Below the pieces are notes generated by a model. The model searched no databases. It was not told where the DNA came from and saw nothing but the letters and a program-made list of their open reading frames with translations. Positions 2,991 through 63,530 of a DNA stretch of 64,000 nt are shown here, piece by piece. Every line of letters begins with the position of its first letter. Position 1 is the first letter of the stretch. Origin of the DNA: Moniliella sp. 'wahieum' (Eukaryota); contig RSEE01000023.1 of NCBI GenBank assembly GCA_003971905.1, forward strand, positions 620,001 through 684,000. Reading direction: 5' to 3'. Both the position numbers and the translations under genes were made by a program.

Positions 2991-3677
2991 ACCACCCCAT
3001 GCGAATGCACCCTTACCCGCACACTCTATTGCGGCTTGGTGGAATGGAACGCGGGCGCCAGCGCAAGGTACTAGCTGTAGTGCGTGTCCCTCAACACGTC
3101 GTGTGGGGAGAGCCCGGGAGAGTTAGGGAGCCGGTCTTGAGTGGCATACGGCCGCGCTCGGTGCGGAGGGCCGACCATCTGATCATTGCCCCCTAGATAC
3201 CCTCGGACTTGTGCTCATGGATGTGTGGTTACAGATACGGTTATAAGAGCAGATGCGATCGAGGATAGAGCCCGCCGCTGTGATCATGGGCAGGCAGCTT
3301 GCTAGTAGGTACCGGACCATGGGCTGCCGCCGGCGCCTTGTGATTCAACTAGGTTTGTCTGGGTTTACCGGTTACCGGTTATGCCAAGCCGCGCGTAACG
3401 CGTAACCCAGAAGCACGGCCACCTGCTGACATCGTCTCGTCCCTCAAAGAGCAGTTTTTGGAATTGTGTTCGGGTGCAGCGCGCAGCAGGCGGGAGTTGA
3501 GACGCTGAGAAAAGCAATTAATAAATGAGCTGCTTTCGTAATAATCCCCTGCCAGTACGCCAGTCACCGTACCCCATTACGTCGTCAGCGAGCGAGACGC
3601 GTTGAGTGAGCCAACAACTTGCTTAAGAGGCCTAATTGTGGCGGCGTCACATTCTCCCTCCCACCACCACCATCACC

Positions 3678-4584
3678 ATGAGCGACCTGCGACAAGAAGT
3701 CTGACCGCTAGGCTGGAACGCACTTTTGCGTGACCGCAGCCCCGACGAGAGCGAACTCGTCGGTGTCCGCACTGCGCCTGGCACGCCCGCGCTCTCCCCG
3801 CGACACATCCCCCACCGGCTCCCCGCGCCCTCTCACCCCCGCCTCGAATCGCGCCACCGCACACGAGATGGCCTCGATCCTCTTCGCCGTTTTCCGCCTG
3901 AGGTGCGTTAAGCCCCCTCCCCCCCATCCACTTTCCACGCCCTCTCCCCTCGACTCTTCCCCGCGTTGGGTACGCCACTGACACGAACGCAGGTGGCTCA
4001 ACGGATCTTCCTCTCATTGCCTGTAGAGACGCTGGCCAATTGTTCGCTGGTGTGTCGACACTGGCCGTCAATCCGCCACGCTGAACTATGCCTGGTTCCG
4101 CCACTGGGAAGAGGAGGAGCGACTTCCTCCTCCTCCGGCCAAGGGGTATGGAGCGTACGTATCTCCCCTAAGTGGACTGCTACCCCCGCTGGGCCAGGGC
4201 GGGGCCAAGTGGAGCAAGCGCCAGAGCCGGACCGATTGGAAAAAGGCCTACATACGTTCCGTGCGCGAACGACTGTTTCCCAGGGAAAGCCTGGCGTCGT
4301 ATGGGATTCGAACTGGGGCATCCCGTGTCCAGACCGTCGAGAACAAGTCCCGGTCGGAGAGGATGGCTGATGCGGGCGTCCTCTCAGCCACCGCGTGGAG
4401 GCAGCAACAATGGGCCGCAGAGGCACGCGAAGAGCAGTGGAGCAAGGAGGACATGCGTGAGAGTTACAAGGTCGGAAACAAGGGTGGCAAGGTCAAGGCA
4501 AGTCCGCCAAGGGGGGCAACAAAACGTGGAACGAGTTTGCTCCATGAGATCATCCAGCTCGGCTCGGGACGTTCCACGTTTTAG
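3678..4584 (+). CDS. F-box domain protein
   Basis: Splicing intron 3903-3992 (GTGCGT..CTGAC..CAG) gives the F-box motif DPLRRFPPEVAQRIFLSLPVETLANCSLVCRHW. A charged C-terminus ends at TAG 4584. Confidence 0.75.
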
Positions 4585-6172
4585 GGCGATCTTGTCGTCT
4601 GCCATATCCTGCTACTTTTGTTGTCGACGTCTGTTCCATTCTTCTCGTGATACCTCTCTGGTGCCTCGTGGGCCCCTTGCGACTCGTTGGTTTAGCCTTC
4701 TAGTATCATATTGTTCAATCTGGTTCGCAGGCTTGGTTGGAGGTGCATAGTATGTCAAGATAGGTCGACCAAGGGGGTGGTTGTGCGGTGTGACTCATCA
4801 GAAACGGCTCGAGGTCAAGTTTCAAGCTTCAAGCTTCAAGGGTATAGTAGTTCTTGTGGGTCCAAAGGTCAACCCAGAGGTCAGAGCCTTGAAACGAGCG
4901 TGAAGCGTGTCATGGCATACTACCCCACAATCAAGTCCACTAACCCACCAGCTTTCAGGCCATTTGAAAGTATACCTAGCCCCATTCCAGCGTCCGGTAA
5001 CCGGCAGGTCCATATCCCCATCTTGTACTGTTGCTTCTCTCAAGTCATATTATATAGCCAGTTATGCCCGAACCTTGGTCCTTTTTATAACAGAAGACCA
5101 TCCGTCCCGCGCCTCAAGCTCTCTGACCAGCAGGTTCAGGTTTTGGTCTCCAGCTCCGCACGCTGTGCCGCAGCACGCAGCATGTGCAAGTGCGGCGTTA
5201 TGTCTCGCTGGAGCACATCATGTCTTGCACCCGCTCCCACAGGCCAAGTTTGGTGCGTTGCATGAGGCAGTGTGGGAGGCCATTCTCCAACTCGTGTGCT
5301 CCATCCCCGACACCCAGTCGCAACGAACCAGCTGTGGAGAGGAGAGGATGGGTCGGGCTCGGGCGGAAGGCGCAGCGCACTGACTACCACGTGATGGGGC
5401 CCGGAGCACTCGGAGGATCAGGAATGGAGGTAGACCACATGCTGCGCGATACGGAAACCAGGAGGCGCAGAGCGCGTACCGGAGGGTGGCGCATGAGAGC
5501 ACCGCGCGCCCTTGGAACGCGGGAGAAGAGCTGCTTCGGCTGCTTGAACAAGCACCAGAATGCGACAAGAACCAAGTGCCAGGGACGCACTCAGACCATT
5601 TTTGTCTGGTTTTGACGACGCGAGGATACTACGGCACCAAGACAGGGGGCAGTTGTTTGCGCATTGGAAGGATTTGGCTACTAAGTCTCATCGAAATGGT
5701 TCCTCGCTCGGGTGTCAACCACGTTCATCGTATCCACACGCGCTACCTAGGGTACGGGACCGGATGGTGTTGAGCCACCGGGTGGCTCGTGCTTTGGCCA
5801 ATGTCCTTTCAGTTCCTCCTCAGGCCTAGGAGTTCCGTTGTTTTCTCTCCTGTTTTTCCTTGTTCTCCGCAGCTTAGCCCCTGGTGGCAACTCGCTGCAT
5901 GACGTTCCTCAGTAGGCGTTGCTGGTTGGCTTAGACCACCACCACCACCATCAGTGCGATTGCATCACCTCGAGGACCATCCGGACTCCAGGTCTCATCA
6001 GATGGCGAGAACCAGAGGGTCCTGATATCCCAGTGGCGATCCCCCTGGTTCCTTAACCTTGGTGGCGCTTCCAAGTAACCCCCGCAAGATTAACGGTTCG
6101 GTTTAGAAGTAGCGTTTCCCCTGTCCCAGCCTTAAGCTCTGTCAATAATATGGACGCTCAGAAGAATCGAAT

Positions 6173-6300
6173 TGTCATGGGGGGAGTCCCGAGAGGTGGG
6201 ACCCCCCCCCCTGTAGTTTAGGGGTATAAACCCTTGGACAGATCAATCGGTGGCTCGTACGTTAGGTCCTGCTCCAGATCCTGATGGTTGAACCGAGGGT
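6173..6300 (-). mobile_element. Truncated LTR fragment (3' end), same family as the solo LTR at 42231-43096
   Basis: TGTCATGGGGGGAGTCCCGAGAGGTGGGACCC..GTATAAACCCTTGGACAG..CGTTAGGTCCTGCT..GTTGAACCGAG aligns by eye to the reverse complement of about 42970-43096. Confidence 0.85.
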
Positions 6301-6978
6301 GAGAACTGGTATATCTTATACGAAGCCACTGAAGTACAAGCTTAAAATGCGACAGAGGAAACGTACTATTGGGGTTGGCTCAGACGAGTAATCGTCGGAG
6401 TGGTCACGCAACTACATTTCTCCTTGGTACACTCGCCAAAACAATACTGGTTTGCCTTGCCTGGTATGCCCTCTCGTTCTCTATCCTCCCCATTATCGCA
6501 TTATCGAGAAACGGACGTATATAGAAGCACCGAATGTAACATGGCCGATGCAAGCAAGCACATAATATCCTCTCTTGTTAACGGCCTCCTGCCTCACGAT
6601 TTTGTATAAGAGTCGCCTGCATGTACTTCAAGAGCGTCATGGATCGTGATCATGGCTCACATGCACATACCACACACTCCCGTGCCCTCCTAACCATTTC
6701 TGAACGGAACTTGGAGTGTAACTTGCAGCGTAGCACTACGTTGACCCCACCCGATTACACGAAGGCGTGTGCAGCAGAGCAACTTCTGTCATGCATGTGA
6801 TGATTACTATGTATCTTCCTGACATGGGCAAGTGATGGGATACAAAAGTTAGAAAAGAAAACAGAGTTTATATTGAAGCACGCAGTGGCCGTGGTGGGGG
6901 AGTGTAGCACAAAGGATATGAAGCTTGAAGAGGCGGACAAAAACCCTGGGGGGTGAAAAGAAAGTGGAAAGTCGATTA

Positions 6979-7065
6979 TGGTGATAAACAGGGAATCGAA
7001 CCGTATCGACCCCTGGTCTTCCGCATTAGCCCAGGATGCGCTTTGGGCCACTGAGTACTGACTGC
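6979..7065 (-). pseudogene. Degenerate tRNA-like sequence (tRNA pseudogene or tRNA-derived SINE head)
   Basis: The minus strand reads GTACTCAGTGG..AAGCGC..ATGCGGAAGACCAGGG(GTCGATACG)GTTCGATTCCCTG..CACCA. This gives an A-box-like motif, a perfect B-box GGTTCGATTCC and a CAGGG/CCCTG T-stem. The acceptor stem does not pair. Confidence 0.5.
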
Positions 7066-7168
7066 ATTATTCAGTCTGCTAGATACGGGGGCCAGGCCGT
7101 CAGGAGAGGATGATATTGGCCTCCAACAAGGGGTGTAGCGCCGGGTACCGGTGCAAACCGATGGCGCC

Positions 7169-8013
7169 TCAGGCCTGAGTCAGGGCTACAACACGCCTCA
7201 ACCCGGCCTTTGGCGGAGCCGCCTGCGCGCCTGAGCGCCTCAAGCTCGCGCTTGAATCCAAGCCGTAAGGTGTAACATGTAAAAGGACATCAGATACATC
7301 GGACACTGGAAGACCGAGTTGGGATGTTCTCCCTGTTCTCCCTCGCAGCCCCGCGAGCGCAAGCCACACAGAGGCCACGTGCTCAGCCTAATGGAAGGAT
7401 CATCGATCATCGATCATTAATCATTGATCATCAGCCAATGCACTATGCAGCAGACTGAGTACTGACGACATAGCGATCGAATATCATGCATCATGCGTAA
7501 CATCCTACACATGGGCCAAGCTGGAAGGGTGTTCGGAAGCGGCGCTTTTTCCGAAGTATTCGACTGTAGCTTACTAGTTACTAGTTACTCCAGCTCGCAC
7601 AAGCTCGCACCCTTCAAGCTTCAAGCTTCACCCACGCCCTTGCGCATCTCAGGCCCCTGAGGGCCTGAGGCTGATGCTGACGGAGGCGGAGGGAAGCAAC
7701 AGTAGGTATGGATCGACGAGACTCGATAATCGATAGTACATCTCGATACTCGACTCATACCCAGGGCTGAGCAGCAGTGCGGAGAAGGTGATGTAAGACT
7801 TGATGCGTGGCGCATGATGCATGGTGGAAAGGAGTGCGAAGTCTATGATGTGCATTCGCCCTGCTCGTCACGCGTATGCCGCGTAACCCGCCCACCGCCG
7901 CTCAGCGCTCACGCGTCCCGCGCCGCCGCAGCAATCTCGCAGATGTTCGTGACTGGAACAATCGAATCTTCCAGCGGTGCATCGGGACGTCACGCGTCAC
8001 GCGTCACGCGTCA
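7169..8013. promoter_or_regulatory. Dense cluster of TCA-[palindromic N4]-TCA heptad arrays upstream of the chitin deacetylase
   Basis: Arrays at 7400-7430, 7456-7465, 7484-7493, 7571-7587, 7614-7630, 7902-7917 and 7990-8013. The regulatory role is inferred from position only. Confidence 0.5.
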
Positions 8014-8822
8014 GGGCGGGCAGTGGCTGGCACAGACTGGCACAGGCTGGCGCGAGAGGCGCAGGGTGGCAGAGGCGGGCGCGAGGCGCACGGTGATAAT
8101 CGATCGAGCCCTCTTGCACCGGGGCACTGGCAACGCAACGAAGTGCGATCACATGCAGAGTCTCTCACATGTCTGGTTCGCACAATTCACCAGGTGCTTC
8201 TTTTAGCGCGTGTTGCTGAGCAGGATCTGCGGTTCAGCACCCGCACGCCGCCAGTTTAAGCCTCTTGGCGAACGCGAGTGCTCCCCAGTGCGACCCGGCC
8301 ACGCAGCGCCCGACTCACCTGCAGTCTTACGTCGCGCCGCGGGGGCAGTGGGGGAGAAACCGTTCTTCGGGCCAGCACCTGCGCAGTGTGCTGTGCAGAC
8401 AGCCCTCAAGCTAGCACAGCGTGGGGGCCAATAATTGCTGCGCGCTACGCGTTCTGTGTTGGGTGGCTAGGGGCGGGGGGCCGGTGGGGGCGGGCCCACC
8501 GGCGCAGCGGCAGTCCCTGACCGCTGCTGTGTTGGCACGCGCATGGCGCATGATGATGATGCATGATGTCGATCTGTACAGACAATTTGCGCCCGCTCTT
8601 GCGCCGCCCACACTTGCCTTGTGCTGTCCCAGGGCCACAGGGGCCTCAGGCTGAGGCCCCCCGTCCTCCACGTTTCAGCCTCCCCACCCGCCTCCGGCCC
8701 GCCTCGGCCCTCTTCAAGCTGGCCTGGCCTTCCGACATCTTCCATCCCTCCCCCCACCTCTCCCCCCCCCTCCTTCCCCCTCCCCCTTTCTCCAGCTCCG
8801 GGCCCACGTTCTCTACCAGGCC

Positions 8823-10303: not shown

Positions 10304-11078
10304 GTCTAGTTACTATCTCTAGTTATTAGTCAAGGTCGGGGGGTCCCGAAGCGTCGATGTGTTCTTGTCGATCAGCTTGGGCACCCCTCTGCTGTCGCAT
10401 TCCAGTTCGTCTTTTGGTGCTTCCTAATCATTCTCCCCTTTGTTTCGTTTTGCTTGCGCACTGCACCCTTTTTATCCACTCGTGCCAGGTCGTACCTGTC
10501 TCCTGCTATCCATCATTTGTGTTCCCACATTCATCCCCCCACGTCGGTCGAGATTGAGATTGATCCAATGACCATGCTAGTTTTGTCTGCGATGCTATAC
10601 ATACCGGCAGTAGTATGCTTTAAAGCGCCTTTGACGTTCATCGATAGTAGTAGAGGGCAAAACCCGCCAACTGTTGTGCCAGCATTGTTGGCTTTGCCTT
10701 TTGGCTTTCAGTGTTTCTCTCTCTATCATAGCCTGTTGTTTCTCGCCAGTCCGACCGCTCTTTGACCCCGGCATCACCCCCTCCTTGCCCTTCCTCCCCT
10801 GAATAGCAAACATCAATAGAAATTGCGTCGCGTGGTCGTCGCGTGCTCCCGCCCAAAACGCGGGGATATATATCTGCCCCGTCCAATTGAACTCGAACGC
10901 TATGCACTCGAAAAAAAGAGGGGAGCCCGGCACATTCCTTCCGTGCCGCCGAGCAGCGCACCAACCAAAGCACCCTGGGGTCTGCCCCATCCGATCCAAC
11001 AGCCCGGTTCCCCCAAGTGGGTACCGAGGAGAAAATACACAAGCGGATCGTGGGCTTGATTGGTGTCCCCTCCCTGCC

Positions 11079-13016: not shown

Positions 13017-13541
13017 GACGGGCGGGGTGAGGTGGGGGAGGAGACGGGGGAGGGGGAGGAGGTGGTGGTGGCTTGTACGAGGCTCGAAGGATCCTTTTCC
13101 AAGGGGGTGGCCGGCAAAATACCAAAGCAAATGCAACCGTCAACGGGGGAACATACGTATCGCTTCACCGGGCAATCGGTGAAATGGTGAAATTGGTGAA
13201 AGAGTAGGAGGCGTAGAAGCCACAACCAGGCCCTGTGCCTGCCTAGCGCATGTGGGGCTTAACTCTAAAATGCGAAAAACTCCTTTGCTCCCCATAGGTG
13301 TCTGAGTGCAGCAGCAGCCGCAGACAGCAGCTCAGCGGCCAAATGGCAGACGCGCCGCACGCAGTCACATGCCGCACGGGGCCAGTGTACTAGTTGAGCA
13401 CTGATCACCGATCAGTGAAACCGAGTGGCGTCGGACGGGTGACGTGCTTGTGTGAGATGGCCACGTGCTCTGTTGGCCGATTATTATTAAATCGATTCGA
13501 TGCTGGGCGCTGGCAGGAGCAAGGCAGGGGGCCACGGGACC

Positions 13542-13585
13542 TGACATGTGACATGTGACATGCTGAGGCTCAGCGCTCAGGCTGA
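13542..13585. repeat. Heptad array (TGACATG)3 plus TCAGCGCTCA
   Basis: Directly visible in a divergent intergenic region. Confidence 0.8.
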
Positions 13586-13659
13586 GCCGCGGAGCGCTGA
13601 CAGGGCCACCCAGCCGCAGGGACATGGACTCGGACCTATTGGGGCTGGGACGGGGGGCT

Positions 13660-13707
13660 GGAGGGCTGGAGGGTGGAGGGCTGGAGGGCTGGAGGGCTGG
13701 AGGGCTG
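13660..13707. repeat. Tandem octamer (GGAGGGCT)n
   Basis: About 6 near-perfect copies are visible in the sequence. Confidence 0.8.
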
Positions 13708-15557
13708 GCAGGGTTGGGCGCCCGCACCAGCTGGACACCCATGTGGACGCAGCAGCATGATGTGGTGCATGATATGGCGATGCTGGAGTTGCTAGTAGGC
13801 CTTGGAATTGCTGGAGTTCCTCTCGTTCCTAGTTCCTACTGGCTGCTGCAGTGCCCCTGCTGCCTTCGGTCCTATATACGCGGCCAGCAAGCATGTGGTG
13901 TTGCGGCCGGCTCCACCAGGTCCACATCACCGGTCACCGGTCACCTACCTTACCCACCCTACCGCCTCCAGGGGCACTTGTGTACCTTGCCAGCGCGATG
14001 GCCAGACGCGTGCTGCGTGCCGCTTTTTAGTATTACCAGAGTATAAGCCTGCGGCCAAGCCCTTCAGACTCTTTCCAAGCCTTAAGCTTTTTAGGCGGCA
14101 CGCTGCAAGCGCCACACGCTGATCTCCATCTTTTTCCTAGTACTACCTATATAGGGTACTACTTGAGCTTGAAGTTGAAGTAGTATTCGTACTGGACTGC
14201 AAGCCGCACAGTATTACTGTTTGGCACAATTCCATCCCAATATCCCACTTGGGCGTTCAGGCCTTCAAGCTTCAAATTCCAGCCTTCAAAACCTTCAAGC
14301 TTTTCAGCCGCGGTCCAAGTCCCCCCCCATTCCCCACGTGCCACGGCTGTCCCTGTTGTCCGCTATTGTCTGGTCTCCGTGGCCGTGTCCCATCCAACAG
14401 CGGCCCTGGGTCTCAGGATGGTCAATGGTATCTCTTGGGCCTGATCGGCTGTTGTCCCCACTATCTGCATCAACTTCTACCCACTCTCTGGCAACGGCAA
14501 CAAACGCACCTCAGGCCTCAGACTGAAGCCTCACCCCCCCAATCGACTGCCATACTTGCATCATTGTGATCGAGGGGACGGGTAGAATTGAGACCTGCCG
14601 AAGAGGCACAGGCAGGTGTGATTATGATGCGAACCTACTCTACTAGTATGATGATGTGTGCTTTGGTTGTGAGCAATACAGCAGGCACGCATAAAGAGGG
14701 TAGTACAATGCCCCCAAAGCGCGGCTGTTTTGGTTTCCGCCGACACAAAGGAAACACCTCATAAAACGCCCTCTTCAAACACAAAGAGCAAAGATGTCAA
14801 AACGTCTCAGTGCTGGAAGGACGAAACACCTCTCACTGTTAATAGACTTGCCTCTGTGTTTTTTTCACCGATGGCCGTGTTGAGATTGAACCCTTTCATT
14901 GGGGATCCCATCAAGGGAAAACAAGCCGTGGATAGTATGCGCTTTCTGTTCTCGGGGAGCGAATACATAGGCGATCTGGCGCTGAAGTGGTTTCCTTAAC
15001 GAAAAAGGGTACTGATTGAGCTCAGAAAGAAGTCCCCGTGTTTTGTTGTGTGTGGTTATCGAATCGTTTTGCTGCGCCCCACCTCTTTCCCGTCGTAGTA
15101 TCGTATTTTGCCCCGTATACTTTGGTTTGACTTTTGACGCCTTGAACTATATGGCTTGTTTTGTAGGACGGCGGGGGAGTTGCTCGGCGCCATGGAGCAA
15201 GCGGGTGCGTTTGGGAGGCCACCAGACGAGACTGGTCGGGGGGGAGGCGGGCAGGAAGGAAGTGCGTGTGTGGTGTGGATGAGGTGGATGGGGGGCGGTT
15301 GCGCAGTGCGGCGTGTGGGATGGGTGACAGCGCTGATGGGATGCGGTAGAGATGCATGCTGGATGCTGCTAGGGTTGGTGGGTGGCCTCAGCGGCTGAGG
15401 CGCCGAGCAGTTCGCTGCAGTCTGGGCACTCCTGGCCGCCGGCTCAAGGCTCAAGCTCCAAGCTTCAAGGCTCGAGGGCAGCTGCAAGCAAGCCTAACGC
15501 CTGCGCCCACCGCATGGCTGCATGCCCAGCAGTCGGTCCGAACTCCGTCTGAGTACA

Positions 15558-15660
15558 TCCACCACCCACCACCACCACCACCACCACCACCACTACCTCC
15601 TCCTTCTCCACCGCCGCCACCACCTCCACCTCCACCTCCACCCCACCTCCACCCCCACCG
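15558..15660. repeat. (CCA)n/(CCACCT)n microsatellite in the WDR48 5' leader
   Basis: Direct tandem repeats are visible in the sequence. Confidence 0.8.
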
Positions 15661-15734
15661 CCGGCCTCCCTCCACCCCCACCTCCACCCCCACCGCCGGC
15701 CTCCCCCCCCCTCGCCTCGCCTCCCCCCGCCAGC

Positions 15735-20058: not shown

Positions 20059-20175
20059 TCCCTTTCCTTTTCCTTTCCCCTTTCCTTTCCTTTTTCCTTC
20101 CCTTTCCTTTCCTTTTCCTTCCCTTCTCTCTCCTCCTTTCCTTTCCTTTACCGCTCTGCCTCTCTTTTCTTCCAT
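20059..20175. repeat. Polypyrimidine (TTTCC)n tract between two convergent genes
   Basis: About 115 bp consisting almost only of C and T. Confidence 0.8.
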
Positions 20176-21697: not shown

Positions 21698-23437
<1,740 letters not shown>

Positions 23438-33359: not shown

Positions 33360-34442
33360 TATTAAAGGTTGTTCCTTTTTTGTCCCAGCTCTCTTTTCGG
33401 GGCGATTGAGAAGGGCATTGTTGACCTACTCTTTGTTTATTCTACGGCATTTTACCGGCATTGTCGTCGTTCTCCCCTCTTGTCCGTGAACATTGCAGCT
33501 TCGCTCTCTTCATCATAAAGACGTTTTTCCTTTTTGTATTAGAGGGATCCATCACCTTCGTGACATGGATGTTTTGACCGTGTACTATGATTGCCTTCTT
33601 TGTGGCATCTTGCTGAGCAGCGGACAGGTTCCTCTCCGTTACAGGTATAGTGACCCCTTCGGTGCAGAGGGACTTTTGGCTCTCTTCCTCATATTTTGTA
33701 ATCGCGGGAAGCGTTTGATTACGAATCGTGTTGGTGGAGGAGGGTTAATGAGAGCGCAATCAACGAGAGAGGCTACGAGTACTGAGTACTATGATGCGCA
33801 AATGTATTCAGGTGACTAAGACGAGTTGTGAGCGAGAAGCGTCAGATCGGAGCTTGGACGACAACACGTTTTTTTGTGGACACGCCGCTATAGGCTGGCT
33901 GTGCAGGTGTCGTGCGAGTTGTGCTCCCTCCAGTCGGAGTGGGAGGTTGCGGACCCCAGGTCGCCTCAGCCCCAACCGGCTTGCCTCAGGCCTGAGCCCT
34001 GAGCCTCAGGCCTCACCGTCAAATGTCCACGGCAACGTCCTCGGTCTGAAGATGCGTTATTTGAGAAGTCGCCTTGGGCGCTCGGCCCCCAGCACGCTGG
34101 GCTCACCGGTCACCGCTCGTCCTCAGGTGGGTGAGGGGCGGCCGGTGAGGCTGGGCCGGCGGGAGTTGGAGGCAGCGCCTTAGGGGTACGGGGGCACACG
34201 TGACTAGTGACTAGGGCCTCGTTTATCTGTCGCCACCGTTCGAAGCTGGGCTCGGGAGCACACAAGAACACGCCTGCCGCCTTGAACGTTTCATGGCCTT
34301 TTTTCTGGCCGTCACATGCCACATGCCATATGTCAGCTTGCCAGGTGCCGTCGCCCGTCGCAGGGACTTGACGCCGACGAGGACTGCCAGCAACATCCAT
34401 CGGTCGTTGCCACCATCCGCTCTGCCCGTTCTCCCTCGACAA

Positions 34443-36142: not shown

Positions 36143-36849
36143 GTGCCTGTTTGGCTTGCGAGAAAGGGCCTTTGGACACAACCAACGTCAACATTGCTCA
36201 CACTTATTAATAGTCACACGGTGTATTGATGATCGGGCGGCCCCAGCGTCTCAGCACGTGACGCGTGATCCTATGATCACATGGGGTTGCTTTGCCTGGC
36301 AGTAGTTCCTGTGGCATGTGTCAGAGGATGCCTTGGTTCGTACGTAGGCAGGTGTGCGACACTTGGATAGGAAATGGAATGGCAGGGAGTGTGAAGCTAG
36401 TGGCCCGCCTGACCGGCTGACGGAGCTGCGTTGGGTTTTCACTGCGGAGGCTGTCCCGCCCAGTCCGGACCAAGCGGGTGATTTTGGACGATTGTGGATT
36501 CAACTTTAGAATCGGCGCATTCCGTGCTGCCCGTCACTGGTGCAGTCACGGTGACTCTGTCTCCGTCACCGCTACGACGCCTGAGCCTCAGGCCCAAGTC
36601 GATCTGGATATGGCAAGAAGTGCTTGAAGCTGGACCAGGTGGACATGTGGACACGCCACGTCGGCACGATTGGTTGGTTGATCCGTCCCGCGAACGATTG
36701 CCTGATAGCCGATACCATAGCCTCGATAACAGCCGGCGGAAATAGATCGGCCAGCAGCCACCACCAAGCTTAAGCTCAAGCTTCACGTCTTCCAGCTTCC
36801 AGACGCACACCAGACGGACCCACCTCGCCTCGTTGCAGCCGCTACCACC

Positions 36850-40159: not shown

Positions 40160-40187
40160 TCATGCATCATGCATCAGATCTGAGATC
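40160..40187. repeat. Heptad array TCA-TGCA-TCA-TGCA-TCA-GATC-TGA-GATC upstream of TRM10
   Basis: Directly visible. Confidence 0.8.
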
Positions 40188-40371
40188 TATTCTAACATGC
40201 TACGAGTCAACGCGTCTTCTAGTTTACTCAGTAGAGTCGTTGAGTAGTGCTCAGTATCAGTACCCATTGTTCACTAGACCCATTCGAGCCATCAACAGAA
40301 AGCCAGTCTATAGTCCCAAGAGCAAAAGCCCAGGCTTTCAGCTTGAAGGGCGTTCATGGATACAAGGGCCT

Positions 40372-41389: not shown

Positions 41390-42230
41390 GGTTGGATGTG
41401 TTGAGCAAAAGCGGATCAGAAAAGCGGCTCGGGGAGAGGGGGTGGAGGAAAGGATGAATTTTGGTGGTGGTGGTGGGCGGGGCCTGGGACTTTATGCTTT
41501 TTGGCGTGAGCAACGGGTATCGAGGTCATCCAAGATCGGGGGTGGCTGGTGGTTCAGGAGGTTCACATGAAGTTCACGTCATAGAGGTTTGCACGAACAC
41601 CCTAGTAGGGTATGCACAATGCATCATGCATCGCGGAACGAAGTAGCACATGAATCTGCATGATCACCCCTTCTGGAGCGCTCCGCCCACTCCGCGGCAT
41701 CTGCGGGAGGCTCAGGCGCTCAGGCCTGTCGGACATCGCCGGTGAGACAACGCGGAGAGCCGCGGCCAGCTGCGGTGCTCGGAGCCTCAGCCTCAGACTC
41801 AAGGTCCTGCGGCAGGCCTGCGCCGCTTAATGAAATTAATGATCGCACATATATCGGACATCTTCGGTGAAACAGTCCCGAGGGCCACGAACACTGGCGC
41901 CGTCGCGTCACGCGTCACACATCATGCATCATACTTCGTCCGTCGTGGCCAGAGGCACCAGGCCAGCGTATCTCTGCTGACAGCTGAGAAGCACGCCCGA
42001 CGGGAGTACGGGAAACATCATACTAACTATTGGCGCACGATCGGCATCTTAAGATACTGAGTATGCTGACGAGTTCAAAAGAACGCCCTTTTTTATTGGA
42101 AACCCATTTCAGTGCCTTCTCTCCTGCTTGATAGACGATCTCATTTTCGCTCCTGTATATCCACTCTATATACATCCCGCAGAGGACTCTTTTTCGCCTC
42201 TCGCGCGTCTCGCCTTCCCGGCAGGGCAAC

Positions 42231-43096
42231 TGTTATGGGGCTCTCCCGTTATCTTCGGACGATGATCCCCGCATGTCGTAGACATCTCAGCCCAACACGC
42301 GTCAGTCCTGTTAGACTAGCGAGAGAGAGCCAGTCGACACCTTGTCCATGCTGTGGATATCATCCGTGGCCCGCCATGGTCGCATGGGCTCGTCGGTACG
42401 ATACTTTGTGTCCATTGCGTCCAGTCTTGGCAGAACCCTTCCTGCTGCGCCAGACTACGTAGCGTCAGAGCGCCTTTGAGAGCATGGACTGTGCATTAGT
42501 CTTTACCTCTCTGGAAAGTGCCCCGCATTCTGTTTATACCTGTCACATGTCATGAGGCACTTGAGGCCTGGTTCCTTCTGTTGTATATAAGCAGCCACAT
42601 GTCTAAGGCTTGCTTGCTGTGGTCCTTGTCGACCATCCTGTCTTTGGTCTCCCCGTTTACCCGTTCCTCTCTCGCCCTTCCACCTTCTAACACCCTTAGT
42701 ACGCTTAAGAATTTACGACTTACGTCGAGTACGCTGCAAGCTGCGGTTACTCTCATTAGTAGCGCTTACTCTTATTTAGGACTCTTTTTTCCTGCCTACT
42801 ACAGGGTACCGAGTATGGTAACGCTACGAGGAACAGGCTAACTTCGGAGCTCTTGGACCCTTTCAGCTGGTCTGGACCTACGTACGCGGCCCCTACCTCG
42901 GAGGGCCTGAGTTGCGGCCTTTGCACGCAGGCAGCCACCCAAACTAGAGGGTCTCTCCCTCGCCTCTACACCCGCTCGGTTCAACGTTCAACCAGAATCT
43001 GAAGCAGGACCTAACGTATGAGACACCGATTGGCCTGTCCAAGGGTTTATACCGCTAAACTATAGGGGGGTCCCACCTCGGGACCCCCCCATGACA
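42231..43096 (+). mobile_element. Solo LTR of an LTR retrotransposon (866 bp)
   Basis: TG...CA termini with an imperfect inverted repeat TGTTATGGGG / CCCCATGACA. Perfect 5-bp TSD GCAAC at 42226-42230 and 43097-43101. Internal TATA (GTATATAAG, about 42584). A second partial copy lies at 6173-6300. Confidence 0.9.
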
Positions 43097-44027
43097 GCAA
43101 CCATATTCCCCTCAATATGTCGCTGTAACAGTCGGGGCTAGACGAGGGAGACCAACGTCCTGTCAGACATGGGGGGGAAATGAAAAGCTCACATTCGTGG
43201 GGAGAAGCAGAAGGCATTGGGCAGTGAGAGAACAGAAGCAAACGGAAAGGAAAGAGCAAGAGACGCAGGATGCAGAATTGAAAATTGGAGTGAGCTTAGT
43301 CATTTGGTGACAGTCGCCACAGGGAACTCTCTCTCGCACATAGCTGCGCCACATGTCTCGCTACCATCACTCGAGGGTGTAGCAAGGAGAGCTATAAATA
43401 TAACGGTTCGCATTTGTCATGTGCTTCCAGGGTTATAGGAAGAACGCCCCGAACGCGAGGCACAACTAAGACACATGTGCTTCCCTGCCCATGTTGTATC
43501 GCGTGTACCATACCCGCATCATCTTCTTGCTCGCCCGTCTCGCCTGCAGTTCGTTTTGAGAGATGCAGAGTTTTTTTTGTTCGAAACACTTCTACTACTG
43601 ATGCAGCGTGTGCCACCCTTCTGCACAAGCTCGCTCTGGTCTTCACTGCGGCCATATGGGCTAGCCGCTTTTGAATAAAGCCGTGTATTCGTGTGGTGAC
43701 CTGGATGAATATGTTGGGGGGGTATGAAGGTGGTACCGGCAAGTACCGGTTGTGCGGTTGCCGGTTGTGCTCACATGAGGAGTGTTGGATGGAATTTAAT
43801 TGGCGTGTGGCGTTGTGTGGCGCACATGCAGCAGCAAGGCACCGTAGCCAACTCTGGCTCCGCTCAAAACGAGCGTACACGAGATGGCCAGCAGAACGCA
43901 CGTGCGCATAGTCTCCGCTCAGATCTCCGATCGGTCGGCATGCATAATGCAAGGGCGAATGAACGAATGATTCACCTGGCGACACGCACAAGCGCAGTGC
44001 GGGAGTGTCGCATGTCGCAGTGGCATG

Positions 44028-44170
44028 TCACATGTCACATGTCACATGTCAGCCACTCAGTCTGAGTCGGAGTGCTCGGTTGAGGGCCCACACTTGCCCC
44101 GTGCGTGCCGCACCACGCCAGAGTTTCTGCATCCAGCCGCTGCTGTTCGGCCCGTCACGCGTCACGCGTC
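44028..44170. repeat. Heptad arrays (TCACATG)3TCA and (TCACGCG)2 upstream of MAM3
   Basis: Directly visible at 44028-44051 and 44155-44170. Confidence 0.8.
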
Positions 44171-44410
44171 CTTCTGTCGAATCGTGTGTCGACCGACCGC
44201 CCCCACCGCCGATTGGCATGGCTGATCGATCAGACATGGGTGATGCCAGTGGTGCGGGATGGGCCTGCTGTTGCTGCGATGGCCTGCGATGGCCTGCTGT
44301 GGCCTCTGCATGGGCATGGCGGGGAAACGACATGGTGTTTGCTCTGCCCAAACACCACTCGCTCACCAGCACGCCTCGTGTCTCCTCTCCCTCCTGCTAC
44401 CAACACCCCA

Positions 44411-52462: not shown

Positions 52463-53151
52463 CTACGATGCGTACGTGCTGCCTTCGGCCGGCTGCGGCA
52501 GCTTGCGGTTGGCTGGCAGTGCCATCTCCCTGCCAGCAAGCACAACAACAACAGTCAGTCACCTGCCCAGCAAGCAGCCAGGGCACACAGCACGTACTTG
52601 CGCAGTTCACTCAGCACCGTCTCAATCGTGTAGTCTCTCCGCCACGACGACAGCACATTCACGCTCGTCGGGTCCACTGCCCGCCCCAGCTGCGTCAGTC
52701 ACGCTCCTCCCCAGCTAGCATCCGGGGCCACATACCTTTCCATTCGTCGAGCTGATGCCAGGAAGGTGATCTTGGTCAGGAAGGCAACCGTTGGCGGCTC
52801 GTCCGGTAGTTGGGGCCACAATGGATCGTAAGCGAGTAGATCCGGTTCTGGTGGACGAGTGCGGCGGGCCAATGATCGTACCGTTCCAGTTGGACATGAG
52901 CATGTCCGCACCATCATCCAGCCCATAGCTCAGCGTTCCATCTCCCAACCCTTCTCACCCTTCTCCAATTCCTCCAGAAGACGAAAGTTGCGCGGGACTG
53001 GCCAGGGGAAACCAACAGTCCAGGGGCAAAGGCATGGTCAGACAGCAAAGTTCAAAAGGAGACGAGTGGCCGTTGCCACGTGGAGAGGGTTTCTCCTCAT
53101 AGCCCATCAGCGGCAAGGGTGTGAATATTGAATGGACATACCCTTGGCCAT
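52463..53151 (-). CDS. MMS2: Ubiquitin-conjugating enzyme variant Mms2/Uev1
   Basis: Spliced product MAKVPRNFRLLEELEKGEK..SYGLDD..WNGTIIGPPH..WRRDYTIETVLSELRKEMALPANRKLPQPAEGSTY. Introns at 53141-52998, 52735-~52678 and 52597-52530. Confidence 0.95.
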
Positions 53152-53717
53152 GTCAATCAGGTGAAGGCAGCGATGGTGGTGGTGGTGGCGGCGGCGGTGT
53201 CGAGGCGCAACCGCTATGCGCGCAGGCTGATGGCCTGGCTTTGCTGCTGGGCGTACGAGGGTGATGACGTGAGATGCATGCCACTTATCGCGGGCACGCA
53301 TCATGCATTACGTGGCGTGTGATTGCCACCACCTCGAGCTCCTGGAGGCGCCACGGGACTGCGAATTCGAGGGGGTGAAATGTTGACTACTGCGCCGCAC
53401 TTTAACGGCATAACCCTACTGTAATTAAACCAGTTGACCGCCCGCTTCTCGGCATCGAGTACGGACATTACTCACGATCTGGTTTGGCTGCGTGGACCGT
53501 ACCCAGACCCCCCCCTAACACCCGATGAGGAACATGGCTTTACTTGAAGACACTATAGCTGGAAGCTCCATCACGCTGCGGGACTATAATACCCCGGGGT
53601 TACACACATTCGCGTTTCTGCGTTTCGAGGCGTGCGACGACAGAGCGCGAACATACATGCGATCGATCTTGTATACAGAGACATGACGTGCACGATGCGC
53701 GACAGATGCTTGTGAGT

Positions 53718-55245
53718 TCAGTTGGGTGCAAGGCTCACCTCCAGGAGCTCCACCACGCCATCGCGTTCGGGCAGATGTGCGGTGGGGAAGCAAGGGTAGT
53801 CGATCCTCGTCTCGTCGTTGTGGCCTTCGACCCATTGTGCGGGCACAGAAAGGGCAGCGTACCTGCTCAGCTCGACCGAACGGAACACCAATCCATTTTC
53901 AGTTAGTGGTCCAGGAAGCGGCCGTAGGTAGTCTCGTTGCGCTGGGTACTTCCAACCAGGGCTACGGGCGGTGGCGCGCCCGCCTCCCCTGCCCCCGCTT
54001 GCAACGCAGCTCGAATGGACTTGGCCAGGGCAGGTATGAGAGCTGGGTCAAATACGACATCAGCTGCAAGAATGAGCGTGGGACGAAAGGCGGCAAGGAG
54101 CTGGAGCCCCGGCGAGGCAGCCGAATCCTCGGGCTCGGGGGGCTGTCACTAGGATCCTCCAGCTCCGATCGCCAGCGTGGCGGGGCGGCATGGCGTCCCA
54201 GAAATCAAACGATTCAATTTGCATCTCACACGGGCGGAGCGAGTTGATTCGTCTTGTCTCGGCCAGGCGGGTGAGCACATTGGATGCAACGTCGGTGGCG
54301 AGGACTTGGCCCCCACCTGCTCGCTGCAGTACTTGGGCACACAGGGCAGCCAAAAACCCAGCCCCGGCACCCAACTCAAGCACCCGGCTGTGCTGTCGCA
54401 GAAGCGTGTCCTGGTGCGCTAGGAGGTGCGAACCCAAGCGGATGCTGGCCTCCCATGTTTGTAGCCCGGTCGTGCCTTCCGACACAAACGCAGATTCTTC
54501 CGGCACGGTCACGCCGCCCCACCCTTGGAACAGATCACACCCATCATTTAGCGCAGCACCTGGACCCGGAAGGAGCGGGTATAGGTAGCGGGCAAAGAAG
54601 GTTCCGGCCCCACCTTGGCCTTCCAGCGCATGGGGGGCCGGTTGGTTATCAGGCACGTTGAGCCGAGAGCGACCGCTGCTAGCGGGTGGTCGGCGGAGTG
54701 CGAGGGTTGAACAAAGGGGAAAAACGGGTAAGAAAAAGGGCGGAAGGCAGGTCAAGTAATGCACACGTACGGGGCAATGGGAGGTACGCAATCGCTCAGC
54801 ATTACGTATACCGCTCGAGGATGCCCTCGGGCATCTCCTTGATTTGGATCAACACAGAGGGCAGAGGGCAGAGGGCAGAGGGCGCTCACTGGTCAGCGGA
54901 AACACGAGAAAAACACGACAATGCAACGGCACACCAAAATCTTCGGCTCCAGGCACGTTTGGCGCTGCGCTTGATCGATAGCAGATTGCAGACGGGCCAT
55001 GAGCTGCTTGAAGAAGAAACTCTTGCGGTACTGATAGGGCGGGACGGGGCAGACAAGGGACGCGTCTGCTTGAGACGATGGCCCAAATAGGTCTTGCTCC
55101 AGCACCGGCAACAGCTGGACCAGCGCCTCGGCCGACGGCCACAGGAAGAGCGGCGGCGCAGCGGCAGGGACTGCTGGTACTGGAGGCTCAGCGCCTGACG
55201 CACAGGCAGCAGTGCCGGGTCGATACGCATCGCAGAATCGGCCAT
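53718..55245 (-). CDS. EFM3: Protein-lysine N-methyltransferase Efm3/EEF2KMT (FAM86)-like
   Basis: N-terminal PPYQYRKSFFFKQLM. Methyltransferase motifs SEGTTGLQTWEASIRL, VLELGAGAGFL, ILAADVVFDP and TQRNETTY. Confidence 0.85.
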
Positions 55246-55388
55246 GGGTGGTGGTGGTTTGGCAAGGCGCACAGGTTTGCATTTCGTGGGCCTCTGGTGG
55301 ACACGGCGGGCCTCAGGGCCTCAGGCCTCACCCCAGGCCCAGAGGCACTCGCTCGCGGCCGAGGACGCACGCGGGACACTGGGGCGGA

Positions 55389-56110: not shown

Positions 56111-56729
56111 TGCCCGAACAGGACTGGGCCACTTTGGTCACCCTCCCCCCCCCTCGAAAATACGGATTCAAGGGCTCGGTTCATCGGTCCCCCGCGGGGT
56201 TGGCCTTGGTTCCGCTGGACCGGACCGGACCAGTCGGATTCGTGCCCGCATGGAGCAGGATACTGCCAGTGTTAATTTGCCCGTGGTACTCGGGTACGGT
56301 AGGCGCCAGCTCCTGCAGGGCCCCTTTCACCGCCTCTCCCTTAATTGCACTGCTTTGTACCATCTTCTGCTCCACTTATGGGTATCCCTTGGTTGCTTGG
56401 CAGCCCAGCAGTCCCCGGCCCCCATCCATCCCTGCCGGGCCATCGGGGACAATACGATGTGCAATGCCATCCATTACCTGCATCACCTGCATCAACGTTC
56501 AACGTTCCTTTGTGTATGTCCTATGCCCGCGCGCCGGGTACCGCGCTGACGGCCGTAGGAGGCAGTGGAGTGGGAAATCTTGTCAGCTGCCCGCCCCGCT
56601 CACGCAAGGCTCAAAATGCCCAGTCAGACGCACGACAGAACAGATCCCTACCCCGTCCGCCTTCCCAACCCTCGGCGAGACAAGAGGGTCTATCGACTAC
56701 CACTGCCAGCGGCACTGTACTGGACTCAC

Positions 56730-59700
56730 TAGCTCACTGGACTCATGAGTATAGAATAGCCGTGCCCGAGCCCGTGCCCGCGCGGAGGGCACAGTGCAGG
56801 GCGAGGGTAGGTAAGGGCGAAGATAAGGATCGGGTGTGAGCGCTGCAGCGCAAAGGGGAACCGGCGCACGCGCCCTCCCAACCCCGATTCCCCCATCGAC
56901 CCGAGCGAGAGCGAACCATGTGAGCAGCGTGGGTCGGGTGAAATGCAAATAGAGAGATGGACAGGCGGCACGACGCGCCACCCACCGAGCCAGGAAGCTT
57001 GACTGGTGCGGGGTATGAGGTACATAGGCCACTTGCATGGCAGGACACGGCCAACGTACGTCGGCAAGAAGGAGAACGGCGAACGGCGAACGGGACGGAC
57101 AACAAGGCACCGCCGTCCCAGCGTCCCGCCCCCGTCCGCGTCGTAGGCCGCTTAGTGGTCCACGGGCACAGGGGAGAGGGGGGACGGGCGTGTCGGCTCG
57201 TGGCCGACGAGTTCGTGGCCATGGCCGGACTGACCTTGTACCCCCTGCACGGACAAACTCATGTGGCCCATCCCCTCGGGCGGGGCTTTCATCCTGCGAC
57301 CGGGACAGGGACAGAAGCGGCGTCGCGCGCCCCACGGCGACGGCGAAGGCGAAGGCGAAGGTAAAGGCGAAGGCGAGGCCGGCGTCTTGGCCCGACCCAA
57401 GTGCGGCGGCGGGGGCTTGTGCGCACGTAAGCGTGCTCATGCCCTTGGCGCCAAGCGAGCGCGCAGGCTTGCTGGCCTTCTTGGCCTTGCTGCCGCTACC
57501 GGCATCGGACGCGTCGTCGTCCATAGGATGAAACGGTCAGCGCGCATAAAGTGCTCCACTTTCGATGCGCCCCACCGGCCACCGACGGCGCTTGCACTTG
57601 CTTGCGCTTGCGCTTCGTCCCGTTCGGTTCGGCAGCCTCCTCTTTTCGGGCGTACGCGGCGGCTTGGTCACGGCCTCGTCCGAGGCACCTGGACTGGTCC
57701 CAGCAGCTTTGCCCGCCTCGCGATGTCAAACTGCGCCGTACTGGGCGGCTCGGGGGAACGTTGCTTGGCCGTTGCATGTTTCGCCGCCGAGGCGGCAGAA
57801 AAGGACGAGGTGGCAGCGGTCAGGGCCAAGGAAGAAAACGCGCCAAAGGAGCTGGTCTTTTTACGCTTATGCTTCACTGCCGCCCCGGCCTCGGCGTTCT
57901 TCGCCCGTCGAGGGGAAGGCGAGCGCGGGAGCAAGCGTGGAGGTGGAGTGTTGCCCGAGGGCGGCGGGGTACCTCGGCCTTGGTACTGGACCACTGCTAC
58001 GGAAATTGAGTGCATGGCGCATGTTGCTCGAGAAGGACCGAGCGCCATGCGTGCTCCCCGTCTCGTCCGACGCGGCGGCGGCCACGATCGAGTCGGACAC
58101 GGCGCGATCGGTTGCCGTCAGCGCAGTGGGAAGCGGCATGGGACGCGGCGGGGTGGGATCGCCGGGCCACCATGCGAGGGCCGGTGTTTGCGCCGGAAAG
58201 CCATGCGCCAGGACGAATCGGTGGAGCCTGGGTCAAAGTCACCGACTCGTCCGCCGCAGCATCTGGTGTCGCCGCACCACCATGGGAGGAAGCAGTGCCA
58301 CGCGACGTACCCGCCCCCTCGCCCGGGGAAGGGGAGCCAGCGTCATTCGGACCAGTCACCTCGGGCCCAGTGGACGCAATGTCCAGCACACGGATCTTGG
58401 CAGAGGAAGGGTTGCCCAGCAGGGTATATTCGCCCACCGATCTGCGCCGCTGCATCCGTGCTGCTGCCACTGCCGCCGCTGATCCAGCACCGGTGCTCGA
58501 GCCCCCCATGATGCGAGTAAAGCCCGTGCTGGACGATGGCGGTGGGTGGGCCGAGTTGGAGGTAAGGCGGGAGCGACCGATGGCTGCGCGTGCGGTAGCG
58601 CCCAACGCCGAGCGGTCGACGTGGGTGTCGCAACTCCCATGAGAAGTTGGGCAGGAGAGGCGACTCCCAAGTGAACGCCACTCCACTGAAGCTACTGCTG
58701 CCGGCTCCTGTGTTGGCGCCCCAGCCAGGAGCCGAGTGCACCGCCACCGAGCTGGACGACATCATCATGTGCTTGTCAATCGAAGTGCACTGCGCCGGCG
58801 TCGACATCTTGATCAGAATGTCCACTGATAACCCAGGGCTCGGAGCAGTGGCTTGGCCTGGATGGATGGTTGTGCTCCGCTCGGCGGGCGGGCGAGGCAG
58901 GGGTTTGAGGGCCGGGTCAACCACGGGTACGGCGGCGAGCGGCTCGGGTTCAGTTGAAGAGTGGGAGGAGAGAGAGCAGTGTGGAAGAGGGACAGAAAGG
59001 GATCGGGGGGCGGTTGTTTCCTGTCCTTCCTCTCCCCTGGCAGAGGGGATGTGTCGCCTACGGTGGCGGGAGCGGGTTTGGCCCCATGGTCGAGGGGCGC
59101 TGGTCAGAGGAAGGCTACAGGGCCACTCCTTTGGGTTCAGACCCATAGGGTGATCGGGGTCGGCCGCCAGCTCGATCGGCGCTCCAACGTGCTCAGCCAA
59201 AGATCCCGCTCCTTTTGGTTGACGGCCATCACCTCAAAATGATGGTCCTGCACCGAAAGACGGAAACAGCGGGGCGCACGCGACGCGAGCAACTCGTCGC
59301 TGGCGTACGGCCATGTCGTGACGGTCGCTTTCGAGATGGGGAAAAAGTGGCGAACGTCGTAGGCGCCCGACTTGCGTACTTTGGCCATCAGGACAAAGCC
59401 CTCAAACAAGACCAGAGACAGATACTTGTACCGCACCGGCACCTCGGGCGGGGCCAAGGTAGCATGGTGATAATACGTTTGCAAGGGCCCGGCCAGAACC
59501 ACGGGGCCCATCCTACGCAGCAGCTGCTGGGGCAGCATCGGTGGGGCCCCAGCCGTAGAATCAACATCTCTGCCAACAGCTCCCGCTCCCGCCGACGCCC
59601 GGCATCGTCCACTTGCGCCGCCGCATCTTTGACGGCAGCAAGAGCCTCTTCAAGCTTGGAGTGCGCCTCTGGCATCTCCGATGCGTACTTGAGCATCGTG

Positions 59701-62655: not shown

Positions 62656-63391
62656 GGCAGCGGCGGCTAGCCGGATGTGGTGGAGTGGAGAGGAGTGGAG
62701 TGGAGAGGCGTGGAGAGGAGTGGAGAGAAACAAGGGGGAGAAGCGGTGGAGAAGAGGAGCGGCTGGGCTGAGTGCGCAGCCAAGCGGAGGCAGACAACTG
62801 GGCTGGTTTGGGAGGCTGCTGCGCTCAGCCCCCCACAGCATCCACGCATCAGCGCATCCAGCCTCACCCTCACCCGTCCCAGCCTCCACCCGCCGCCGGA
62901 GTGCCGCAGCCCACCCACACTGCCCCTGCGCCCTCCTATTCACCCCGATCACGTGTTGCGCGGGGGCGCACCATCCATCCCCGCCATTTCCATCGCCATC
63001 GCCACTGCCACCCATCCCCATCCCGCTCCCTCCCCATCCAGCACACATCATTCACCTGGCATCGCAGCGGGGAAGCTTAGATTCGGCCTGGCGTCGCATG
63101 GCAGCCGCCCTGTGCCCGCCTCGCTCGCGCCGTTTAACGTTTAGGCTGCGTGCGCTGGGCTTGCTATTTCAGCAGCGCCTGTCCCACGTCCTCCCCTCCA
63201 AGCAAAGCCTCACGCGTCCGGCGGCGGGATGACGTCACCACGCATCCCAAGTCGCTGTCGGGAGCGGGTGGGGCGAAGCTTAACCTACACCCGTGCATCA
63301 GCGCAGTGTAGCACACAGCTCCCCCTGCGCCCTCTCGTCCGGCGCATGTGTGCACCCTACCTACCCCTCACCTGTGCAGAACCCACCCGCA

Positions 63392-63530
63392 TCACTCGTC
63401 ACTAGTCACTAGTCACTAGTCACTAATCACGTGTGCATGTGACTTCCACCTCAAGTCGCTAGCTTCACTAGTCCTATCACTAGTCACTTCGATATTATGC
63501 CACTACTGACATCGACTGAGATCTGAGATC
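63392..63530. repeat. Heptad arrays (TCACTAG)n and (TGAGATC)2 upstream of the RhoGEF
   Basis: Directly visible at 63392-63429 and 63517-63530. Confidence 0.8.

Follow-up and report, generated by a model that had tools for sequence, protein, structure and literature searches.

The 64-kb window analysed here (positions 620,001 to 684,000 of contig RSEE01000023.1 of Moniliella sp. 'wahieum', numbered below from its first base) is nuclear fungal DNA with a G+C content of 60% and short introns (GTGCGT...CTGAC...CAG). It contains numerous short arrays (Table 1) in which a T-N-A triplet and a 4-nt palindrome alternate with a 7-bp period, and merging of the individual runs gave 38 such loci. The sequence rule that these heptads follow is real and strong and apparently undescribed, and the arrays are probably mutational scars rather than a selected code.

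Pfam matches among the open reading frames (ORFs) of the window include, from left to right where positions are given, a KH-domain gene (- strand, ~1.5-3 kb), an F-box gene (+, 3.9-4.5 kb), a polysaccharide deacetylase gene (+, from ~8.7 kb), a WD40/DUF3337 gene (+, 16-20 kb), the gene for the ATP synthase alpha subunit (+, 22-23.4 kb), a fungal adenylate cyclase gene with RA, LRR, PP2C and cyclase domains (+, 24-31.8 kb), a CNNM/Mam3 gene (+, 44.2-46.3 kb), an ABCG transporter gene (-, 46.9-52.1 kb) and a methyltransferase-like gene (-, 54.1-54.8 kb). Genes for mitochondrial L21 (-), allantoicase (+), a tRNA m1G methyltransferase (-), an NmrA-like protein (-), Tim17 (+) and a RhoGEF protein (-) were also matched. 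The nearest named relatives of the CNNM protein are those of Ustilaginomycotina, namely Tilletiaria (76% identity over the conserved half), Thecaphora (74%) and Pseudozyma flocculosa (74%).

Expected numbers were taken mainly from dinucleotide-preserving shuffles of the window (200 for 10-mers with the same triplet at both ends, 30 for the 12-mer pattern described below). Of the exact period-7 runs in the window, 41 are 14 bp or longer; rotations of T-N-A plus a palindromic 4-mer make up 24 of these, and none of the 41 is built on the quasi-palindromic centres A-N-T, G-N-C or C-N-G. Ten-mers consisting of two identical TNA triplets around a palindromic 4-mer occur 54 times, against 1.98 ± 1.34 in the shuffled sequences (maximum 6). 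The same construction with a non-palindromic 4-mer is found 30 times against a shuffled value of 29.3, and the other xNx' classes are at background. When N is free to differ between the two triplets the palindromic form is still in large excess (61 against 6.4 ± 2.6) and the non-palindromic form is not (65 against 98), so that the enrichment of palindromic spacers proposed in a first-pass annotation of this DNA holds for the TNA form in the window. The two triplets have the same N in 54 of these 61 10-mers, i.e. N is copied and not complemented. Pairs of identical TNA triplets are enriched only around a 4-nt palindromic gap (54 against 2.0), and palindromic gaps of 0, 2, 6 and 8 nt are not enriched. 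Fourteen of the sixteen possible palindromic 4-mers are used as spacers, only AATT and TATA being missing; the annotation had counted twelve, to which ACGT and ATAT are added here. All of the arrays that it listed were recovered, each no more than a few bases from the position it gave, and its (TCAGGCC)n at 33986 does contain that sequence, but the site itself reads TCA-GGCC-TGA, a perfect 10-bp palindrome within a complex stretch. Two compositional trends, N being C or G in 33 of the 38 loci compared with 72% of all TNA in spacers (p = 0.046) and a TCA:TGA strand ratio of 23:10 (p = 0.035), are too weak to use. It is extremely improbable that the arrays are an artefact of assembly or sequencing; they occupy 38 loci in unique sequence with 14 different spacers, they follow a rule unlike any sequencing error model, and their decayed copies carry ordinary point changes.

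Metagenome contigs were scanned for five TCA triplets in 7-bp phase, which gave 146 arrays at 125 loci. A palindromic spacer was absent from 137 of these arrays, five had one and four had two, and none had three or four, so heptamer arrays do not in general obey the heptad rule. Within the window there are also two period-7 arrays that break the rule, (CAGAGGG)4.1 at 54855-54883 and (GAACGGC)2.9 at 57074-57093, and ordinary heptamer slippage therefore occurs here as well. Among the metagenome sequences, two GC-rich loci carry decayed TCACCGG-type arrays. In contig L062 (G+C 0.59; 1500-1600 and 3480-3560) these arrays form the inverted ends, with TGAC-heptad runs (TGACCGG, TGACTAG and TGACTGG), of a segment of about 2 kb; the segment resembles a mobile element whose ends are built of heptads, and it probably has no relation to the window arrays. 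The 363-nt contig L089 (G+C 0.64) has at 300-363 a long decayed (TCAGGCC)n-type array with units TCAGGGC, TCATGGC and TCAGGCT, which resembles the window arrays and may come from a related organism.

The basic unit of the arrays is a 12-mer of the form [w x T N A][x' w'][w x T N A], which starts at a palindrome centre and ends after an A; in other words, a 5-bp direct repeat surrounds two nucleotides that are reverse-complementary to the first two bases of the repeat. This pattern is present at 67 positions (both strands) compared with 0.2 ± 0.4 in 30 shuffles. Its period-5 analogue with a 1-nt inverted part (4 against 4.2) and its period-9 analogue with a 3-nt inverted part (1 against 0.6) are not enriched, and 12-mers constructed in the same way with other loop types are at or near background. 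Two particular 12-mers of like build with other centres each occur twice, GCATGGCGCATG with an A-T-G centre (8541-8552 and 58012-58023) and GCTGGGCGCTGG with a T-G-G centre (13502-13513 and 49278-49289), although such 12-mers are at background as a class.

Exact TNA-type runs have lengths of 10 (17 runs), 11 (7), 12 (11), 13 (13), 14 (5) and 15 bp (4), and the longer ones of 19 (3), 20 (2), 26 (1) and 28 bp (2), with growth in steps of 7 bp (12, 19, 26). For the three control centres run lengths fall off geometrically and none reaches 13 bp. The phase of the runs is also fixed. The 12-mer core is carried by 8 of 11 runs of 12 bp (chance 2/7, p = 0.003) and by 11 of 13 runs of 13 bp (chance 4/7, p = 0.04), and all three 19-mers and the 26-mer start at a palindrome centre and end after an A, or are the mirror image of this. 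A simple tandem duplication of a 7-mer was rejected as the origin of the runs, their minimal length being 12 and not 14 bp and their boundaries being phased. In the flanks of the 24 12- and 13-mers, 1.96 of the 6 positions on each side agree with the unit; these flanks are unrelated to the unit, so the short runs are not worn-down long arrays. The core lies only on the + strand in 15 runs and only on the - strand in 11, with both orientations interleaved inside a single 1.7-kb spacer, as is predicted by a symmetric break with two mirror outcomes. A fold-back into a perfect 10-bp palindrome, found at 12 positions on both strands against 4.0 ± 3.3, was also rejected as the basic event. The elementary event is thus one in which a site w-x-T-N-A gains 7 bp, of which five are directly copied and two inverted. 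A palindrome whose sequence is free must stem from base pairing or copying and not from readout by a protein, and the fixed period and fixed T-N-A point to the geometry of an enzyme.

Table 1. Heptad loci and related runs in the window. Positions are counted from the first base of the window; the strand is that of the core, with a dot where none is assigned.
Positions	Sequence	Strand	Remarks
2661..2673	13-mer CTGAGCGCTGAGC	-	one-event form; KH-domain gene region, possibly intron
3365..3381	(TTACCGG)2.4	.	N = T variant
3392..3406	(TAACGCG)2.1	.	N = A variant
4821..4840	(TCAAGCT)2.9	-	length 20 = 19 + 1
6919..6930	12-mer TGAAGCTTGAAG	-	one-event form; flanks match unit at 0/6 and 0/6
7050..7061	12-mer ACTGAGTACTGA	+	one-event form
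7271..7282	12-mer TGTAACATGTAA	+	N = A
7398..7432	(TCATCGA)n	+	~5 units; units 3-4 decayed, TCGA to TTAA and TTGA
7454..7465	12-mer ACTGAGTACTGA	+	identical in sequence to the locus at 7050
7483..7496	(TCATGCA)2.0	.	
7571..7589	(TTACTAG)2.7	-	19-mer, 7k+5 phase
7612..7630	(TCAAGCT)2.7	+	19-mer, 7k+5 phase
7899..7911	13-mer CGCTCAGCGCTCA	+	
7988..8013	(TCACGCG)3.7	+	26-mer, 7k+5 phase
8556..8568	13-mer ATGATGCATGATG	-	~90 bp ahead of polysaccharide-deacetylase ORF
13542..13562	(TGACATG)3.0	.	
13568..13580	13-mer GCTCAGCGCTCAG	+	flanks match unit at 0/6 and 0/6
13927..13945	(TCACCGG)2.7	-	19-mer, 7k+5 phase
14263..14275	13-mer CTTCAAGCTTCAA	+	
14509..14521	13-mer CCTCAGGCCTCAG	+	
33983..34015	complex TCAGGCC / TGAGCC stretch	.	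includes 13-mer GCCTCAGGCCTCA at 34003
34103..34115	13-mer TCACCGGTCACCG	-	
34200..34214	(TGACTAG)2.1	.	
36257..36268	12-mer CGTGACGCGTGA	+	
40160..40188	(TCATGCA)2.4	.	adjoins AGATCT-G-AGATCT
41904..41932	(TCACGCG)n	+	decayed to TCACACA and TCATGCA
42541..42552	12-mer TGTCACATGTCA	+	
42979..42992	GTTCAACGTTCAAC	.	two-unit array in one copy of ~135-nt repeat
44024..44051	(TCACATG)4.0	.	~190 bp ahead of CNNM/Mam3 ATG
44153..44170	(TCACGCG)2.6	.	73 bp ahead of CNNM/Mam3 ATG at 44243
53122..53133	12-mer TGAATATTGAAT	-	spacer ATAT
55317..55330	(TCAGGCC)2.0	.	8-bp variants TCAGGGCC ahead of array
56492..56507	(TCAACGT)2.3	.	sole locus in a convergent-looking (3'-3') spacer
63131..63143	13-mer CGTTTAACGTTTA	+	N = T
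63398..63432	(TCACTAG)4 then TCACTAA	.	
63477..63488	12-mer TCACTAGTCACT	-	
63516..63530	(TGAGATC)2.1	.	

The arrays gain and lose regularity in ways that can be followed in the sequence. A repeat of about 135 nt is present twice in opposite orientation (6180-6300, +; 42980-43090, -), with 78 nt of it 90% complementary between 6206-6283 and 42993-43070. The + copy has a single GTTGAAC near 6290 and the other has GTTGAACGTTGAAC, which is the two-unit array of that copy, so that the paralogues differ there by 7 bp; a separate 3-bp difference adjoins this one. The repeat, with a G6...C10 hairpin near one end, was recognised neither as a tRNA nor as a member of an Rfam family, and could be a miniature mobile element or the gene of a small RNA. 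An 8-bp variant of the unit, TCAGGGCC, is itself duplicated at 55308, and slippage therefore acts on these arrays. Unit number thus varies, between the paralogues and among arrays of 2 to 4 units, yet the unit is restricted to TNA plus a palindromic 4-mer in 24 of the 41 runs counted above, and the boundaries are in phase.

Changes of spacer within an array had been taken in the first-pass annotation as something that slippage of one unit could not produce. The spacers of the 7400 array are TCGA, TCGA, TTAA and TTGA and those of the 41908 array are CGCG, CACA and TGCA, as would arise from uniform (TCATCGA)n and (TCACGCG)n arrays through C-to-T and G-to-A transitions at CpG, and for these two of the three cases the argument from slippage is not needed. 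The third, at 40160-40187, consists of two different arrays that abut, and is not explained by CpG transitions. Units with CpG spacers changed both C-to-T and G-to-A are found several times at 7400-7430 and 41904-41932, which suggests that the mutability of CpG (or TCG) is high in this genome; cytosine methylation or a repeat-directed mutation process could be responsible.

Thirty-six of the 38 loci lie outside all ORFs with Pfam matches and all exons called by codon score, and of the other two, one falls within the KH gene region, in a weak segment on the opposite strand, and one lies 5' of the first ATG of the CNNM ORF; the statement that multi-unit arrays are missing from coding DNA is thus borne out for supported genes. 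Twelve of the loci fall within 6919-8568, ahead of the deacetylase gene. On a rough gene map of our own, since exon calling recovered just 20.6 kb, about 36 loci are in the ~17.8 kb of spacer that adjoins a gene start, one (56492) is in the ~2.6 kb of convergent spacer, and gene bodies contain no more than two, even though introns should contribute a few kb there. This distribution, the dense clusters near some starts (for example 44024 and 44153, ahead of the CNNM gene) and the presence in some units of the known motif cores CACATG and ACGCGT, the second being the MluI cell-cycle box, would fit a selected gene-upstream element with a role in transcription, acting by hairpin or cruciform extrusion, by nucleosome exclusion, or by binding a protein that recognises either T.A repeated every 7 bp or the structure of the DNA. 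We nevertheless find such an element decidedly improbable. With 14 spacers and all four N in use there is no fixed sequence to read, five of the seven positions being free (N, and the four palindrome bases, which are constrained only to pair); only the T and the A are constant, whereas an array of transcription factor sites should have a conserved core. The symmetric DNA-binding protein that had been proposed as the reader of a general promoter element fits poorly with a minimal form that has no symmetry and is found in both orientations, even within one spacer. Units decay by ordinary CpG transitions with no repair of the palindrome, and start codons lie anywhere from ~70 to over 1500 bp away. 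That coding DNA lacks the arrays calls for no special cause, as an insertion of 7 bp shifts the reading frame, and spacers at gene starts make up most of the non-coding DNA of the window in any case. The apparent deficit in introns and 3' spacers, which is weakly founded, suggests either targeting or selection.

The structure of the 12-mer is that of one stereotyped event, L-w-x-T-N-A-R to L-[w x T N A][x' w'][w x T N A]-R, with a net gain of 7 bp, and the arrays could well be, at a little under an even chance in our estimation, the excision scars of a cut-and-paste element whose departure leaves breaks capped by hairpins, next to a target duplication of 7 bp with TNA at its centre. Integration would proceed through 7-bp staggered cuts centred on T-N-A and would duplicate S = w x T N A y z. 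Excision would then leave even hairpins on both flanks, and opening of these by a host nuclease 2 nt from the tip would give 4-nt self-complementary 3' overhangs. If end joining kept one overhang and trimmed the other, the product would be [wxTNA][x'w'wx][TNAyz] or its mirror [wxTNAyz][z'y'][TNAyz], in either case with a gain of 7 bp, and the 12-mers that are found in both orientations between unrelated flanks would be the expected products. After the first event the first TNA would lie in a perfectly symmetric 7-mer, where a second event or slippage would add a unit in phase; the 7-bp steps of array growth are seen in the run lengths, and slippage of the hairpin-prone repeat or re-use of the site would account for them. 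Subsequent decay is by point mutation, chiefly at CpG, and the arrays persist only in non-coding DNA, with their highest density in the gene-upstream spacers. All features of the arrays are reproduced by this scheme. As to what makes them, the agent may, somewhat doubtfully, be an undescribed hairpin-forming transposase, or a nuclease derived from one and retained by the host, that acts or has acted very frequently in the open gene-upstream DNA of this Ustilaginomycotina lineage, integrates at NN-TNA-NN with a 7-bp stagger, leaves a single exact +7 scar and is followed by re-targeting or slippage into arrays.

The same product can be reached without a transposon, if a 3' end at a nick or short 5' flap, 2 nt before T-N-A, switches onto the displaced strand, copies back 2 nt and is ligated, so that a loop-out of 7 nt (w x T N A x' w') becomes an insertion of 7 bp to which hairpin-assisted slippage then adds units. 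Such an error of replication or repair gives exactly the 5-nt direct and 2-nt inverted copies that are seen, and is consistent with the one-unit difference between paralogues, with the slippage evident in the duplicated 8-bp variant and with a window that has no transposon. The unit is also predicted to fold as a stem of 2 to 5 bp with a TNA triloop. The predicted energies of the single strands are modest, however (-2.5 to -8 kcal/mol, z -0.6 to -2.4), and pairing gives no reason for T-N-A alone to be used, since G-N-C and C-N-G would pair better and are yet at background. Longer and more stable stems, as in the period-9 form, are not enriched, and a strand-specific process should give one orientation per short stretch, in place of the interleaved orientations observed. 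We therefore regard this route as rather unlikely. The structural element that the annotation had also offered is apt as a description, triloop hairpins being weakly predicted, but leaves the restriction to T-N-A and to period 7 without an explanation. The footprint of a fold-back or template-switch process comes closest of the readings offered in the annotation, in view of the 5-bp direct repeat with two inverted nucleotides, the two orientations, the unrelated flanks and the decay by point mutation.

Several observations weigh against excision through hairpin-capped breaks as the origin of the arrays. Only 5 bp (wxTNA) are visibly repeated, and the full 7-bp duplication is deduced from the geometry. 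No element with a matching 7-bp NNTNANN duplication and inverted ends was found in the window, where low-complexity DNA and the one 78-nt pair are the only long repeats, inverted or direct, and a transposase domain was matched in none of 273 ORF submissions (203 ORFs of at least 130 amino acids plus 70, some of them repeats). The spectrum of alternative footprints is also lacking: the +3 product TNA-TNA occurs 41 times against 31.7, the +11 product TNA-pal4-pal4-TNA (pal4 being a palindromic 4-mer) is absent and a plain duplication of the 5-mer occurs once, in tests that would miss irregular products without periodicity. There is a single product class here, whereas known footprints are heterogeneous. 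About two scars per kb of spacer would require a very active element or a long history, and all counts rest on one 64-kb window with rough gene models. The paper on elements with 7-bp duplications (PMC12730594) contains no mention of Ustilaginomycotina.

Mechanisms that complement N in one copy can be set aside, N being the same in 54 of 61 10-mers; these are a double topoisomerase I cut at T-N-A and the odd hairpin of hAT elements, whose hallmark is an odd palindrome centred on the complement of the base beside the element. That palindrome is not seen in the window arrays, and its period-6 form is not enriched (4 against 1.2), so that hAT, the best-known candidate family with 7-bp duplications, does not fit as it stands. 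The PIF/Harbinger elements, whose target duplication has the sequence TNA/TWA, share with the arrays a strict and directly repeated T-N-A. Their duplication is of 3 bp (PMC12730594), however, and remnants of element ends between TNA duplications, in the manner of Tc1 or Harbinger, would give one filler per family, whereas the window has 14 fillers, each templated by the 2 nt before the first TNA; this origin was rejected.

The closest known counterpart of the arrays is the P-nucleotide excision footprint, of which they would be a variant. The components of the excision scheme are known from other systems. Hairpins are left on the flanking DNA by MULE, hAT and Transib elements (PMC5499845), and in fungi excision of the hairpin type leaves footprints that consist either of short deletions or of palindromic insertions of P nucleotides (PMC5873905). 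Like the footprints of Ac/Ds, other hAT, MULE and Transib transposases and the coding joints of V(D)J recombination, the window arrays combine a direct repeat, which would derive from the target duplication, with a short palindromic addition templated by the flank, the two junction nucleotides being by definition of the 12-mer the reverse complement of the first two of the repeat; repair would here too be by end joining. Hosts of hairpin-type footprints can also show one or two dominant products, as in Candida albicans, where two products make up 53 of 128 clones (35 and 18) (PMC5873905). Unlike P-nucleotide footprints, the window scars are always of +7 bp, with an even 4-nt palindrome, a strict T-N-A centre and one product class, and they grow into arrays. 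Basidiomycete elements with 7-bp duplications include hAT7 in Pucciniales (rusts; Melampsora) and Kyakuja in Agaricomycotina (PMC12730594), which are of the same phylum and have the duplication length that the scar geometry requires, although for hAT7 the chemistry is that of hAT and does not fit. Hairpin-prone micro- and minisatellites resemble the arrays in their perfect head-to-tail units, in the difference of unit number between paralogues and in their predicted hairpins, but slippage alone predicts no restriction to T-N-A or to period 7 and no fixed phase of the boundaries. No published description of such arrays was found in a literature search whose coverage was thin for subscription journals; the palindromic microsatellites treated in one paper are those of Fusarium mitochondria and have no connection with the arrays (PMC7218506).

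A signature this exact, with an excess of about 300-fold, one period, one centre and two mirror products, points to the geometry of one enzyme. The agent, once found, would add a new transposon behaviour or a new outcome of fungal repair, and much of the insertion seen upstream of genes in the lineage would be accounted for as well. If it is a transposase or a nuclease derived from one, it would be a main source there of variation in promoter length and of cruciform-prone DNA, and some arrays may since have come to serve regulation. Motif finders applied to such promoters will report palindromic heptads as "regulatory motifs", though their anatomy is that of scars. As unit numbers change, the arrays could serve as strain markers.

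A tRNA search of the window found none, and an Rfam search gave no family at its gathering score, the sole match, at chance level, being on the ~135-nt repeat. The other simple repeats of the window are (GGGCTGGA)8 at 13655-13717, a long CCA/proline-rich tract inside an ORF at 15559-15731 and a CT-rich (CCTTT-like) tract at 20059-20165; all three are ordinary microsatellites that do not follow the heptad rule.

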